A stretch of DNA of 47,981 bases, from the NCBI GenBank assembly GCA_045659325.1, contig JAZOWQ010000104.1:1-47981 (forward strand), read 5' to 3'. A program made the translations under genes and the position numbers. Under the pieces are notes generated by a model, which ran no database searches, was not told the origin of the DNA, and saw only the letters and a program-made list of their open reading frames with translations. Positions 1 through 5,162 of the stretch are shown here, in pieces (within the stretch, counting starts at the first letter, position 1; every line of letters begins with the position of its first letter). The DNA is from Faecousia sp. GTDB lineage: Bacteria > Bacillota > Clostridia > Oscillospirales > Oscillospiraceae.

Positions 1-54
1 AAGTGTCCACCGGACACTTGCATTCAAATGGGTTCGATTCCGTTCCTCCATACC
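1..54. repeat. tRNA-associated structured repeat (partial, cut by window edge) containing an inverted copy of the tRNA-Leu(TAA) T-arm/3' end
   Basis: 18-41 ttgcattcaaatgggttcgattcc matches 16471-16494 ttgcatttagatggattcgagtcc at 20/24. ggttcgattccg-N9-acca has the same length and ends as the tRNA-Leu(TAA) 3' end. Confidence 0.65.
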
Positions 55-92
55 AAAATAAGGGAGAGGCAGAAGCCTCTCCCTTATTTTGG
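52..92 (-). terminator. Intrinsic terminator-like hairpin; original trailer of tRNA-Leu(TAA), now downstream of the integrase
   Basis: ccaaaataagggagaggc-agaa-gcctctcccttattttgg is a perfect inverted repeat. Confidence 0.75.
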
Positions 93-1568
93 TGCACCTG
101 AGCAATCCAAATTCGAACCAGTATTCTTTTTTACTGCTATCTTTGCGTCGGTCAGTGTAATAGTGCGGTCGCCGTCTTTGAAGTTGAAAGTCAGCAGCAA
201 TTTATCATCGTGGACAAACACGGCGTTGACAAAGGTATCAATCAGCATTTGGCGGTGGCTTTCCTTTGTTACATCGAGCTTGCGGAAGCGGTGCAGCCAA
301 AACCGCATAAAGTCGGCGGGGATTTTCGGCTTCTCCAGTTTCTCTTCCGCAATCCGCACAAGCAATTCTTCCTTAGTGGATTCAAGCTGTGTCAGCTTGG
401 TTTGCAGAGCCTTGGAGACCATACCACCAAGAATGGCGTTGACGGCGTTTTCAATGGCGGTTTCGGTTTCCCGTAGCTGCTGCTCATACATCGGCAAATC
501 TGTGTTGTCCTCGTCCTGTATCCGCATAAGCATAGACACGATTGCTTCTATAGCATCATCGTCCATCAGCATATCCATTGTTTCCTTGACTACTAAATCT
601 TCAATCCATTCCTTTTTAACGGGTTTCTTTTTGCAGTCGTTCTTCTTCGTCTTGGCCGCATGGCATTTGTAGTATCTATGCGTTGTTCCATTGCGACCCG
701 TTCCACTTTCTCCGTTCATAGTTGCTCCGCAATGACCGCAGAATATCTTGGTGGACAAGAGATAGTTTTCCACCGCTTTGGCTCGGGCAGGAGCTTTCTT
801 GTTCTTCTCCAGTTTCTCTTGCACCCGTTCAAACAAGTCAAGCGGAACAATAGCAGGAATGCCATCGGGAACAACAATATCACGGAATGAATACTCGCCA
901 ATATAGCGGCGGTTACTCAGCATATGCTGAACTGCCGCCCAAGATACAGCTCTGCCCTTGGTATTGGTAACGCCCTTGTCCTTGAAATATCCTTGGATGT
1001 CAGCTATTGTTTTTCCATCGTCATATTGCTTAAAGGCTTCTACGACATAAGGGGCGGTCATTTTGTTAATCTGTAGGTGTTGCTCCTCGTCTACCACATA
1101 GCCGATAGGGAGAGTGCCGCCATTCCATAAAAGCTTGTTGGCGTTCACAGTTAAGCCGTCCACCACCCGTTCCTTTAGCTTTTCGGAATAGTATTCAGCC
1201 ATGCCCTCCAAAAGTGCTTCCATAATTATGCTTTCGCCGCCAGTACCAATGGCTTCCGTAGCGGATACCACCTTTACACCATTTTCCTTGAGCTTTGCCT
1301 TGTAAATTGCACTATCGTAACGATTGCGGGCAAATCGGTCAACTTTGTACACAAGGACAATATCGAATTGCTTCCGTTTGCTCTCCCTAATCATTTTTTG
1401 AAATTCGGGGCGTTTATCGGTTGTGCCAGACTTTGCCTTATCGATGTAGTTCCCGATAACCATATACCCATTTTGTGCGGCATACGCATTGCAAACATTC
1501 AGCTGAGCCTCAATAGATTCCTCCCGTTGACTACTGGAGGAATATCGGGCGTAGATTACTGCTCTCAT
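84..1568 (-). CDS. Large serine recombinase/integrase (resolvase + recombinase + zinc ribbon/coiled coil), 494 aa in the integrated state
   Basis: N-terminal YARYSS catalytic Ser motif, SG..KRPEF, DRFAR, and CGHCG...YYKC zinc ribbon followed by coiled coil. Confidence 0.95.
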   Translation of the reverse strand: MRAVIYARYSSSSQREESIEAQLNVCNAYAAQNGYMVIGNYIDKAKSGTTDKRPEFQKMIRESKRKQFDIVLVYKVDRFARNRYDSAIYKAKLKENGVKVVSATEAIGTGGESIIMEALLEGMAEYYSEKLKERVVDGLTVNANKLLWNGGTLPIGYVVDEEQHLQINKMTAPYVVEAFKQYDDGKTIADIQGYFKDKGVTNTKGRAVSWAAVQHMLSNRRYIGEYSFRDIVVPDGIPAIVPLDLFERVQEKLEKNKKAPARAKAVENYLLSTKIFCGHCGATMNGESGTGRNGTTHRYYKCHAAKTKKNDCKKKPVKKEWIEDLVVKETMDMLMDDDAIEAIVSMLMRIQDEDNTDLPMYEQQLRETETAIENAVNAILGGMVSKALQTKLTQLESTKEELLVRIAEEKLEKPKIPADFMRFWLHRFRKLDVTKESHRQMLIDTFVNAVFVHDDKLLLTFNFKDGDRTITLTDAKIAVKKNTGSNLDCSGAPK

Positions 1569-1575
1569 TGAAATA

Positions 1576-1628
1576 CCCCCATATGATATGTTGCAATAAT
1601 CATATCATATGGGGGATTCTTTAGTCAA
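1576..1628 (-). promoter_or_regulatory. Integrase promoter overlapped by a 15-bp perfect inverted repeat (probable operator)
   Basis: cccccatatgatatg-N10-catatcatatggggg (1576-1615). Minus-strand TTGACT (1623-1628) N18 TATGAT (1599-1604). Confidence 0.55.
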
Positions 1629-1660
1629 TTCTGTAGTTCAACTGTTCGACATATTGGAAT

Positions 1661-1984
1661 TTACTCTGTTGGTTTTTTGAGGTTTCTTTTCTTTTTGACA
1701 CTTCGTATTATTGACCATACTCCCCAGCCTATGCCGCAAACGATAACCATAACAGCAAGATTTATAGCACACCCGACATAAAGCAGTCCGTCCCAGCCTA
1801 AACAGAAGGAGGAAGCTACAAGAGCCGCCACAGCTAACGAAGTAAGAAGCATGATTGGTATAAGGCGAACAAGTATTGATTTTGCTTTCTGGCAAAGCAC
1901 CAGTTGAATTGGTAAAATTACCGCGAATGTAAAAACCAATAGAATTGGTCCAAGGTTTATACTACCTATCCAAATATCTAACAT
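1661..1984 (-). CDS. Small cargo membrane protein (about 3 TM helices), function unknown
   Basis: 107 aa, three hydrophobic segments, basic C-tail, GGAG RBS upstream. Confidence 0.75.
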   Translation of the reverse strand: MLDIWIGSINLGPILLVFTFAVILPIQLVLCQKAKSILVRLIPIMLLTSLAVAALVASSFCLGWDGLLYVGCAINLAVMVIVCGIGWGVWSIIRSVKKKRNLKKPTE

Positions 1985-2088
1985 AAGGCTATCTCCATAT
2001 CAATTTACAAATTCAAGTTTATCGGTGAGTTCATTGTATCACCGATAAACGCAAAAATCAACTGCCGCCCTTGCCCTTGGCCGCAGTC

Positions 2089-2190
2089 ACCCAATACTTT
2101 TGGCTTCCAAAAGTAATATTGGGTTATTGCCATTGGCAAGCTCCTTTTGTTTGGTCGTCTATGCTATAGGCAAACCCACCAAAAAGGAGC
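2089..2190 (+). other. Putative MOB_V-type oriT and hairpin over the relaxase RBS
   Basis: Nested inverted repeats acccaata/tattgggt and tacttttgg/ccaaaagta followed by gttat, directly upstream of the relaxase. Second stem gctccttt(2140)/aaaggagc(2183) covers the RBS. Confidence 0.6.
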
Positions 2191-3486
2191 ATGACAATGG
2201 AAATTGAAAACGAAGTAACCATATCAACACACAACGGCAGCCAAGTGGCAAGGCAGCACAACTTACGCAATCCCAAGGTTATCTGCAAAGAAGACCACAT
2301 CGACCCCAACGGGCATTTTGAGGTGTGGCTGGACGAAGACCCGAAAGCAGCCTATGAACGGCTGTTCGGGGAAGCGGTCAAAGCCTACAACGCCAAACAG
2401 ACCCGACCCGACCGCCAAATCACCGACTACTACAAACAGATTTGCGAGGACAGCAAGAAAAAGCCTGTCTATGAGCTTATCATTGGTATCTATGGAAAAA
2501 AGGCAGACGGCACACCCATTTGCAGCAAGAACGACGGCAGACGAATCCTGCGAGCCTTCACCGAGGACTGGGAAAGACGGAATCCCAACTTGAAGCTCTG
2601 CGGTTTGTACTATCACTGCGACGAATCTGTCGGCGTAAACGGCAGCCAAGTAGGTCATGTCCACATTGATTATATTCCCTATGGAGAGGGATTCTCCCGA
2701 GGAATGGCTATCCAAAGTTCATTGACAAAGGCACTGGAACAGCAAGGCTTCCAGTCGCAAGGCTTAAATAATACCGCCCAAATGCAATGGGAAGCAAGGG
2801 AGAATCAATTTTTGGCAACTCTCTGTGCTCACGCAGGCTTTGAGGTAGTGCGTGGCAAAGGCGGCAAGGAGCATTTAGACACAGCTACTTACAAAAAGAC
2901 CAAGGAGCTGCAGGAGTTACAGCAGCGGCAAGCCGAGCTTGCACAGAGCATTGCCAAGACGGAGCAAGAGTATGAGGAGCTTCAAGACAGCTACGAAACA
3001 CTGAAGTCGCAAAAATCCCTCTCCCAAGCGGTTATGGAAGCCTACGCCGAAGAAGATTTGAAAATCGAGGTGCAACGCACCCCAGCTAAAACCAACCCCA
3101 TCACCAAGCAGACAACGCCTGCCCAAGTGACGATGGCGGAAGCGGATTATCTCGTGCTGAAGGAGCGAGCCGCAGCAACCTCTTGGATTCGCAAGGCTAT
3201 GGAGGATTTGAAGCACCTCGGGGCAAAGCTGACCCGAGAGCTGAATCAACGCCGCCGAGTGGCGGAGCTGCAAGAGCGAGCTGCATCAGCCGAGGTAGCC
3301 GCCCGAGCTGCTGAAGTTGACCTTGCCAATGCCCGAGCTGAGATTGCCGACTTACGACAGCAAGCACAGGAGCAGCAAGACTGGATGGAGCAGCAAACCA
3401 CCCGAAGCGGCAAATCTATTTGGGAGTATTTCTTGGATTTCATAACCAAGCAACGAGAAAGAGACTATATTGAACATGAGCAATAA
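2191..3486 (+). CDS. MOB_V (Pre/Mob, plasmid recombination enzyme-like) relaxase
   Basis: N-terminal HNLR motif, H-x-DE...H-x-H motif (YHCDE...GHVHIDYIP), long C-terminal coiled coil. Confidence 0.8.
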   Translation: MTMEIENEVTISTHNGSQVARQHNLRNPKVICKEDHIDPNGHFEVWLDEDPKAAYERLFGEAVKAYNAKQTRPDRQITDYYKQICEDSKKKPVYELIIGIYGKKADGTPICSKNDGRRILRAFTEDWERRNPNLKLCGLYYHCDESVGVNGSQVGHVHIDYIPYGEGFSRGMAIQSSLTKALEQQGFQSQGLNNTAQMQWEARENQFLATLCAHAGFEVVRGKGGKEHLDTATYKKTKELQELQQRQAELAQSIAKTEQEYEELQDSYETLKSQKSLSQAVMEAYAEEDLKIEVQRTPAKTNPITKQTTPAQVTMAEADYLVLKERAAATSWIRKAMEDLKHLGAKLTRELNQRRRVAELQERAASAEVAARAAEVDLANARAEIADLRQQAQEQQDWMEQQTTRSGKSIWEYFLDFITKQRERDYIEHEQ

Positions 3487-3487
3487 C

Positions 3488-3526
3488 AAAAGCAGGTGCG
3501 TTTTTGAGCGCACCTGCTTTCTTTTT
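3488..3526 (+). terminator. Intrinsic terminator of the relaxase gene
   Basis: aaagcaggtgcg-tttttgag-cgcacctgcttt followed by a T tract. Confidence 0.8.
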
Positions 3527-4473
3527 GCGGCTTGGGACATATATGTGGGTCGTGGACGGGACACGAGTGTGGGGCGGTTGCCGCAAGCAAGAGACCATTC
3601 ATCATTTGTCCCGCCCCGTTTAGCAGAAGAAATGGACATACTGCTCCCTTGATTTCTCAAGAGAGCAGTACAAAAAACGAGGTCGCCCCATGTTCCCTTC
3701 ATCCCCCATGCGTCTATTTTAGCCGATTTCTGTGCGGCGAACAACTTACACAGGATTTTGCTTTCCCTACTGCCCATACGCCTCTCGACGCATGGCGTAA
3801 GCCTTTTTACAATCGTCCGTCTGATTGCTGCTTTCGCTTTGCTTACTCCGTCGCATTGCTTATACCTATCACAAAACGACCATCGCACCCGAGAGCGTCG
3901 GCATGGTGACCGTGGCAACTCTACTATATGACAGTCCAAATCCGCCATATAGATTTGTCAATCGGGCTTCGACCTTTGAATGGATACCGAAAACTTTAAC
4001 TTCCCCCATTGCAAGGGGATTTGCATGATTTTGTCTCCTTTTCATGCTGACACACCATGTGAACCACACTATTCAGGTCATGGGAAAGAATGACCAAGGG
4101 CATGAGGCTGCTTTCTTGCGGTGGAGCCTACCCTAGCAGTTTATAGAGATGCTGCTTGCTCTTTTAATTGGGACAAGGGTTGACTATTGGCACACTAACC
4201 GCCATCAAGTAACACAGCTATTAAGTCAATCGTCATTCATTTAAGTTCTCTGTGAAGTGTTCAACTTGAATCCTGTTAACCTACTAATACGAGTCCCTAT
4301 TCGGTTGTTACATCAGTATAGACGATAAAAAATCAGCAAATTGAGCGGGCGAAAGGCGTAGAAAATTCATCCGATTTTTACCCCGTTTTTCTCCATCCGC
4401 CATCCCTGCCAAGCATACGGCACTTTGACTATATCCCTATTAGAAAATAAATTTTGATAGGAGATATTGAACT

Positions 4474-4791
4474 ATGAGTAGAAAGAAAAAGCTGATTAAC
4501 AACACAAATATTCCTCAGTATGCGATTGAGCATGTTGCTCGTTGTGTAATGGACGATATTCGAGAAGCATATCTAAATGAGGAAATTCAAAAAGCATTTG
4601 CTGAATGGGAAAAAGAAATGCGGTCGCTGAAAATTAAACGAGGAATGCAAGAAAAGAAAGAGAGAGCTGTCAACACGGCAGCTCTCTCTGTTTATTTCAG
4701 TTTCTTCTTTCCTCTCGGTCCTCGTGGCTTGGATTCGGGGCGTATCTTCCAACCATTCGCAAAGTATGTTTGCTCATACCTCGTGAAATAA
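4474..4791 (+). CDS. Small element-encoded hypothetical protein; the real protein may be only the N-terminal ~55-60 aa
   Basis: AGGAG RBS and TTGACT-N17-TAAATT promoter (4425-4453). The ORF runs through a terminator-like hairpin at ~4657-4693. Confidence 0.55.
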   Translation: MSRKKKLINNTNIPQYAIEHVARCVMDDIREAYLNEEIQKAFAEWEKEMRSLKIKRGMQEKKERAVNTAALSVYFSFFFPLGPRGLDSGRIFQPFAKYVCSYLVK

Positions 4792-4847
4792 ACAATAAAT
4801 CCGAACCCATCCCCAACGGGGAATAACTGGTTCGGATTATATTGCTT
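4692..4847 (-). other. Cryptic 51-codon C-terminal segment of the integrase, fused in frame only after excision/circularisation
   Basis: Open frame from the att core: (AP)KQYNPNQLFPVGDGFGFIVYFTRYEQTYFANGWKIRPESKPRGPRGKKKLK*, same frame as integrase ...SGAPK*. Confidence 0.75.
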
Positions 4848-4934
4848 TGGTGCCGCTGACCGGAATCGAACCGGTACGGATTTTACTCCGAGGGATTTTA
4901 AGTCCCTTGTGTCTACCTATTCCACCACAGCGGC
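4848..4934 (-). tRNA. tRNA-Leu (anticodon TAA)
   Basis: GCCGCTG...AGGGA-CT-TAA-AA-TCCCT...GGTTCGATTCC...CAGCGGCACCA, 87 nt with long variable arm. Confidence 0.97.
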
Positions 4935-4980
4935 ATATATATTTGTTTTTGCATATGGAATTGCTTGGGGTATATAGGTG

Positions 4981-5122
4981 TTGTGTCTACCTATTCCCCC
5001 GTTTGCGGTACCCGATATCTTCCTTGCCGTCGGGGCGGCTGCGTCAGCTATCGACCGCGGCACACGCTGCGCCTTCGCTTATTCCGCCACTGGCGGCGCT
5101 CAGGCTCGCGGCCACAGCGGCA
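4981..5122 (-). repeat. Duplicated 5' part of tRNA-Leu(TAA) interrupted by a ~114-bp GC-rich REP-like insert
   Basis: 4981-4997 equals 4907-4923 (17 bp). 5112-5122 equals 4925-4935 (11 bp). A hairpin-rich GC insert lies between them. Confidence 0.7.
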
Positions 5123-5133
5123 AGCGCTTAGTT

Positions 5134-5162
5134 ATAGTAGCACATTTTTATCTGGCCGTCAA
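5134..5162 (-). promoter_or_regulatory. SigA-type promoter of the tRNA-Leu(TAA) locus
   Basis: TTGACG-N17-TACTAT on the minus strand. Confidence 0.7.

Follow-up and report, generated by a model that had tools for sequence, protein, structure and literature searches.

Recombination state fixes the encoded C-terminus of a serine integrase in a tRNA-Leu mobilizable element of Faecousia

What becomes of an integrase when the attachment (att) site of its element lies within the 3′ end of its own gene? This question is raised by a 4,758-bp mobilizable element inserted at the CCA end of a tRNA-Leu(TAA) gene on contig JAZOWQ010000104.1 of Faecousia sp. (GCA_045659325.1), the whole 47,981 nucleotides of which are called the window hereafter. 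A preliminary description, made from the sequence alone, had proposed that excision of the element adds a C-terminal domain to its large serine integrase. Our analysis indicates that the added segment is coding and under selection in a wide family of related elements, and it leads to a tentative mechanism for the control of recombination direction.

The Integrase Gene Is Completed Differently in the Chromosome and in the Circle

The core tttggtgc was found in two direct copies, at 88–95 and 4846–4853. In the integrated state, the integrase open reading frame (ORF) extends from 1568 to 84 on the minus strand and encodes 494 amino acids ending in S-G-A-P-K, with a TAA stop codon at 86–84 that is supplied by the host flank; Resolvase, Recombinase and Zn_ribbon_recom were all detected above the Pfam cut-offs in this short form, together with a coiled coil. 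At the other end of the element, the minus strand from 4853 to 4692 reads in the integrase register as A-P followed by 51 codons and a TAA at 4694–4692, and the joined gene of the circle would encode 493 + 51 = 544 residues, 50 more than the integrated form. The circle-only extension, or tail (4692–4847, minus strand; 51 codons and the stop), comprises an att-encoded linker, a predicted β-hairpin and a basic end, and is followed by a terminator-like hairpin (4657–4693, flagged as such over 4659–4689; z score −3.0 for 4640–4710) lying between the tail and a convergent small gene. These readings bear out the preliminary description in the two core copies, the 494-residue form ended by a host TAA, the in-frame 51-codon segment that gives 544 residues and the hairpin past it. 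Its statement that the core encodes A-P-K holds for A and P but only partly for K, whose codon has two bases in the core and takes its last base from the host (87) or the element (4845). Absent from its account was the target itself, the tRNA-Leu(TAA) gene (4848–4934, minus strand; predicted by ARAGORN), which is intact after insertion and whose 3′ CCA end is the right core.

The element encodes a relaxase of the Mob_Pre (MobV) type in addition to the integrase (2191–3486, plus strand; PF01076, E 4.8e-10, above the cut-off), has direct repeats at its ends and lacks a conjugation pore, as is characteristic of integrative mobilizable elements. The core at the integrase end (88–95, minus strand; attR in the sense used here) is defined by the repeat and by an empty-site joint, in which position 87 is directly connected to 4846 on one contig from one of four runs; the 4,758 bases between are missing and eight letters fit both sides. 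This contig, with a depth of 3.8 and 28 letters on its short side, is weak evidence on its own. In combination with the recurrence of frame and motif in 51 of the 52 distinct relatives described below, it indicates that the arrangement is more than chance.

The Tail Is Conserved across Reconstructed Circles

Relatives of the integrase (E ≤ 1e-60) were carried by 42 of the 201 genomes sampled from the host's family, and the integrase module recurs at many tRNAs and in many taxa. Among the best 120 protein matches, conservation reaches as far as the att-encoded proline, beyond which the tails, of 0–175 residues, are unrelated to one another, and in none of these 120 does a circle-type tail directly follow the conserved end. 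We therefore modelled the circles of relatives from 291 sequences, namely 290 loci (some of them overlapping) and the window. The integrase end was present in 274, of which 59 also contained an upstream tRNA on the same strand; 56 of these were resolved, L058, L159 and L182 being left out, and they represent 52 distinct elements. Cores were assigned by a fixed rule, after a choice by longest shared repeat had been dropped for giving wrong cores in several loci.

The modelled circles encode tails of 20–66 residues, and an in-frame NPN..FG motif was observed in 51 of the 52 distinct elements, which lie at seven tRNA types, the exception being L150. The integrated-state tails are arbitrary, spanning 0–130 residues (median 23.5) with no common end. 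In 33 of the 37 elements at tRNA-Leu the circle tail has 47–66 residues, similar to that of the window, and in the clades at other tRNAs it has 24–40. Six further loci (L346, L349, L351, L352, L355 and L360) contain tails whose distal half has decayed; in several of them the available DNA includes no family integrase, and they are likely element remnants.

Integrases bearing the tail also occur as natural proteins. P0153, a database protein of 544 residues, carries the tail, and both its body and its tail match one clade (86–88%), although the cluster of P0153 also includes members of other lengths. Integrases ending in the motif were found at 14 distinct viral loci, and 27 of the best 150 profile matches end in it; one phage integrase body, identical over 485 residues in L283 and L278, has a different end in each. 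P0129 also bears the tail in cis and resembles a tandem-insertion fusion. Eight small "Bacteriophage sp." records and one plasmid record were examined as possible circles, and the eight of these nine with a readable integrase end, the plasmid among them, all have host-like ends, none of them tail-bearing.

Selection Acts on the Tail as Protein and as DNA

For codon analysis we used 33 long tails, which were picked for length, and their openness is therefore no evidence of coding. The N-P-N and F-G codons are invariant in 33/33; they coincide with the two DNA motifs, the att motif and an inverted copy of it, that form the hairpin behind the tRNA and are separated by 21, 24 or 33 bases in all 51 cases. 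Conservation at the DNA level only is a valid explanation for these five codons, whereas synonymous change dominates elsewhere. Over 16 disjoint nearest pairs, which share ancestry and are thus not fully independent, the ratio of nonsynonymous to synonymous substitution rates (dN/dS) was 0.115 for the loop, 0.19 for residues 18–51 and 0.14 for residues 23–48 of the tail, compared with 0.105 for the integrase body. Among single-base codon changes in tail residues 18–48, 112 were synonymous and 37 nonsynonymous, and the corresponding counts in the two shifted frames were 16:115 and 13:120. An antisense gene as the source of this conservation was rejected, as the antisense frame whose third positions coincide with those of the tail is open in only 4 of the 33. 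Two distant phages have lost the inverted copy of the motif at the DNA level and kept the hydrophobic pattern of the hairpin.

No conserved start codon was present in the codon table of the 33 long tails. When the tail was searched on its own (30 loci), the strict-motif tails start at the called tRNA end in 22 of 27, and a T-loop motif was found in three more. Because the tail has no conserved start and begins at the tRNA end, it is, as far as the codon patterns tell, a coding segment readable only when fused to the integrase. On this sequence evidence, the constraint acts on the tail both as protein and as DNA, and the tail is very probably a functional protein part of some kind. The preliminary description had staked its reading in part on frame and codon conservation in the reconstructed circles of related elements, and both were recovered, as the motif is in frame in 51/52 and the tail is under purifying selection. 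Its broader claim that recombination state sets the isoform stands in so far as the encoded C-terminus is fixed by that state, the tail is conserved and natural proteins with the tail in cis exist.

The Short Form Resembles a Complete Integrase

The model of P0153 matches the SPbeta, Bxb1, LI and phiC31 integrases over residues 1–466, up to or nearly up to the last residues of their chains, the best fold match being SPbeta SprA (Z 18.9; root-mean-square deviation 18.3; 454 aligned residues). Modelled in this way, the short form is a complete canonical integrase and, since the solved integrases align to residues 1–466 only, the tail is additional. From the ends of the aligned range, the SprA residue F532, reportedly a key one (Abe et al. 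2021), presumably corresponds to a position close to model residue 463, which belongs to the short form. In both models examined the tail consists of a disordered att-encoded linker followed by a two-strand β-hairpin, and its distal 30 residues have low confidence. It matched no Pfam or PHROG family and lies outside every structural alignment, which does not make it a new fold. To call the extension a domain was thus an overstatement, given a hairpin and a basic end in low-confidence models. The stretch KPRGPRKKK resembles an AT-hook, but this reading was set aside as the G-R-P order is absent.

The tRNA T-Loop as the Probable Target Motif of the Integrase

In 51 of the 52 distinct elements, the arm on the integrase side has a GTTCG-type motif 26 bases before CCA, and the tRNA has this motif, as its T-loop, at a distance of 21 bases. 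The other arm of the element contains the motif in inverted orientation, with its end 21 bases past CCA. In the window, these arms are the P arm of attP (96–119, minus strand), located within the integrase coding sequence, and the P′ arm together with the core at the tRNA end (4829–4853, minus strand; attL in the sense used here), both placed by motif position and the latter also by the repeat. The sites are of about 50 bp with a short core, and the motif is located about 5 bp further out in attP than in attB, a shift known as a signature of large serine integrases (PMC11722253). The host-side arm lacks the motif in 49/52. The family targets Leu, Ala, Arg, Pro, Tyr, Lys, Val and Met tRNAs; the use of the T-loop as target motif explains how one family reaches so many tRNA types and why the integrated forms end in arbitrary host sequence. 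At two loci, L336 and L357, the tail follows a tRNA-Ser or a tRNA-Thr gene, and the one at Ser is a long tail of the Leu type, as target switching would leave.

Directly behind the tRNA, a hairpin followed by T-rich DNA (4790–4847, minus strand; z score −5.8) is formed by the P′ motif (4829–4838) and its inverted copy (4798–4807) and covers the first third of the extension. Over 31 sequences its consensus stem has nine pairs, three of 11 pairs exhibiting two-sided change, mostly within one clade. To judge by these features, it is likely a replacement terminator for the tRNA or a further integrase site. The hairpin also sits inside the long-form coding sequence and could shorten the long mRNA, as a second control. 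L278 and L244, which encode different phage integrases, have in common an att-like hairpin just past the integrase core, one base out of frame, which is probably the scar of another element behind a tRNA. A host terminator-like hairpin (52–93, a 19-bp perfect inverted repeat; z score −6.7), whose outer arm takes in most of the core, would directly follow tRNA-Leu in the empty site and was displaced by the insertion. Across this shared hairpin, a tRNA-like 3′ fragment (1–56, plus strand) is convergent with tRNA-Leu; contig C106 contains the fragment in identical form, and three further contigs have weaker matches to it.

A Conserved Small Gene Is a Candidate Directionality Factor

At the tRNA end of the element, a conserved small gene encoding about 60 amino acids (4474–4665, plus strand) was recognized by profile matches in relatives. 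Genes of this family, of about 60 codons, were found by profile search within 45 of the 52 elements, always opposite to the integrase and in 37 of 37 at Leu, and were carried by 54 of the 201 genomes, with the best genome matches lying at these elements. Being small, located inside the element and co-occurring with the integrase, it is a candidate recombination directionality factor, and its size and position recall SprB of SPbeta. Large serine recombinases work in one direction unless such a factor is present, and a factor of this kind would bind where DBD2 meets the coiled coil and reverse the direction. Its presence in all 37 distinct tRNA-Leu elements weakens the earlier hint that the tail takes the place of such a factor. 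In the window, the frame of the small gene runs through the terminator to 4791, antisense to the tail for about 100 bases, and this overlap in the clade of the window might allow mutual interference on the circle.

A Proposed Switched Shield over the Factor Site, and Its Rivals

The recombination state sets the encoded C-terminus: the circle would encode the 544-residue enzyme and the chromosome the 494-residue one. As an incoming circle can make only the long form, the long form must integrate, and as a lone integrated copy can make only the short form, the short form must start excision. We propose that the tail biases the 544-residue form to integration by occlusion of the factor site, with the 494-residue form carrying out excision, a reading to which we assign a probability of roughly 45%. 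The β-hairpin of the tail would pack against the sheet of the zinc ribbon (DBD2), on the unpaired edge that serves as the docking site of directionality factors, so that the factor would be shut out and the long form, insensitive to it, would integrate. The basic end may add DNA affinity, which would be useful because the host-side arm of the target lacks the recognition motif. With the tail off, the edge would be open, the small protein could bind and the short form would excise. According to Shin et al. (2025, PMC12286644), most factors extend the DBD2 sheet by one strand, and access to this site could be obstructed by additional strands at the C-terminus; in SPbeta, the integrase and factor genes lie at opposite margins and flank attP (PMC8270828).

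Several observations weigh against this proposal. No circle junction of the window's element was among the joints listed for the four runs, which are 15 of 17. The β-hairpin has a predicted local distance difference test score (pLDDT) of about 57 in the full model and of 61–70 in a domain model of a phage long form (predicted template modelling score 0.70), and where it packs could not be read from either model. Since tandem insertion can also make long fusions, the long-form records are no proof of a circle of the window's element. Four of the 37 Leu elements have tails of only 20–31 residues and one further has a changed end, and the basic end is found in the Leu clade only. The small gene is absent from seven of the 52 elements, including all five Val elements and the single Met element, which keep the tail; its product matched no Pfam family, has no significant sequence match in PDB and fell only in unnamed Atlas clusters below 0.9. 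Finally, the published readings for Roseburia phage Shimadzu and for Myxococcus phage Mx8, in the parts covered, favour stability or activity.

Those readings lead to the main rival of occlusion, in which full activity or stability depends on the tail, low activity or a short life of the integrated form keeps excision rare, and direction is set wholly by a separate factor binding both forms. In its favour, the integrated form of Mx8 is less active (PMC4701971), stability has been proposed for Shimadzu (bioRxiv 10.1101/575076), loss of the hairpin could expose a hydrophobic edge and all the selection data fit. We consider it less likely than occlusion, as the short form has a complete canonical fold and the integrated tails, arbitrary in sequence and without a common end, provide no dedicated degradation tag. 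Alternatively, the short form may be dead, as in the suicidal integrases of archaeal SSV type (PMC8371274), with excision needing long enzyme made by a second copy or by tandemly arranged elements; this has been raised for DsiB of Dehalococcoides (McMurdie et al., PMC3146451), and tails without a nearby family integrase do exist, such an integrase being present in 4 of 20 regions, many of which are cut by contig ends. The split, however, takes away nothing that solved integrases have, the integrated genes are under purifying selection (dN/dS 0.105) and the Shimadzu prophage makes virions (bioRxiv 10.1101/575076), all of which render such a dead end improbable.

The strand added to DBD2 by most factors, and the fact that C-terminal factor fusions are functional (PMC12286644), would also suit a tail that acts in cis as a directionality factor or otherwise locks attP, the long form then blocking re-integration after excision; yet an incoming circle or phage has the long form only and must integrate, and the tail is present in free-phage forms, so that this too is a poor prospect. 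A similarly small chance is left for a translated but inert tail, conserved through the att arm, the terminator or the antisense small gene. The invariant N-P-N and F-G codons with their inverted repeat point that way, as do the third positions shared by tail and antisense frame in the window, whereas the distal 34 codons lie outside the hairpin and hold the 112:37 excess of synonymous change, the antisense frame is seldom open, and the two distant phages retain the hydrophobic hairpin pattern without the inverted DNA copy. Least credible of all is that the integrated element expresses the segment as a separate small protein. Its transcript would be shared with the tRNA, but it would have no conserved start codon, its frame starts at the CCA of the tRNA, and gene callers that report the tail prepend translated tRNA.

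Other Features of the Element and Its Surroundings

Upstream of the integrase, a sigma-70-like promoter (1576–1628, minus strand) was recognized by consensus match only, and a 15-bp perfect inverted repeat (1576–1615) spans this match and the ribosome-binding region as a possible operator; no regulator gene for it was found within the element. A hydrophobic ORF of 107 amino acids (1661–1984, minus strand) matched no Pfam family and appears to be variable cargo, being replaced in a relative (joint 1662–2008). Upstream of tRNA-Leu, a palindrome-rich repeat (4961–5135) has four diverged copies in the genome and is absent in some strains. An island-like block of lower GC content (20086–45500) begins right after tRNA-Thr(GGT) and encodes a protein kinase, a two-component pair, a serpin, an immunoglobulin-like protein and two long BlaR1/M56 proteins.

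Relation to Known Systems and Significance

The split arrangement is already published, for Shimadzu of the same family and for others; what is new here is the selection on the tail and a testable mechanism. Shimadzu (Cornuault et al., bioRxiv 10.1101/575076) also has a large serine recombinase with its site inside int and two forms of the protein, and a second copy of it is inserted in a tRNA. Its integrase is the best phage match of a family member (50.6% over 510/514 residues) and is 45% identical to P0153, and its free-form end follows the same pattern of PNP, hydrophobic, turn and hydrophobic. The two systems thus have in common a homologous integrase, an att site in the 3′ end of its gene and a conserved free-form tail, but the Shimadzu tail has about 22 residues compared with 50 here, and Shimadzu is a phage, whereas the element in the window bears a relaxase. 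Stability is suggested in that paper, the covered parts of which hold no tests of tail conservation or function. In our literature search, which covered sources other than subscription journals and bioRxiv supplements, we found no paper testing selection on, or the function of, such a tail.

In the ssrA islands of Dehalococcoides (McMurdie et al. 2011, PMC3146451), the 3′ end of the serine integrase gene dsiB likewise overlaps att, and DsiB is possibly complete only on the circle or in tandem according to its authors; DsiB differs in that it targets tmRNA, has a second recombinase as its partner and is reported to diverge in alignments at its end. The serine integrases of streptococcal integrative and conjugative elements at rumA (PMC4701971) also have att inside the gene and an excised C-terminus that differs, but their target is protein-coding, with reciprocal 3′ exchange. 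Integration also rewrites the integrase gene in Mx8 (IntP) and in archaeal elements of SSV type (PMC6070905, PMC4701971, PMC8371274), which encode tyrosine recombinases, cut into inactive halves in the SSV type; a change of activity on integration was tested in Mx8 (PMC6070905, PMC4701971). The SSV class was rejected for our element, whose integrase is by its Pfam domains not a tyrosine recombinase and includes, even as the short form, every position that solved integrases align to. SprA and SprB of SPbeta (PMC11722253, PMC8270828) provide a small helical factor gene at the other margin, like the candidate here, and the SCCmec recombinases (PMC12286644) have extra C-terminal strands proposed to block the factor site. 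Neither gene is split by att, and the SCCmec extensions are permanent, whereas here the extension is switched by recombination.

It is possible, though on balance doubtful, that the proposal holds broadly. In a large family of elements and phages of gut Clostridia, recombination would then furnish the integrase with its own shield over the site for the directionality factor, or strip it off, the circle enzyme being factor-proof and integration-only and the chromosomal enzyme factor-responsive and excising; the small gene would represent a new factor family, and the same enzyme would read the universal tRNA T-loop as its target. Serine integrases are core tools of genome engineering, and the control of their direction is an active question. 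Shin et al. (2025, PMC12286644) left undecided whether the factor site is blocked by additional C-terminal strands and what the enzymes that have them do instead. Family integrases mined from chromosomes carry a host-derived, wrong end, and assays of such proteins may therefore overlook the form that is able to integrate. The family itself offers a natural paired experiment, in which one enzyme occurs with and without extra strands, together with a candidate factor.

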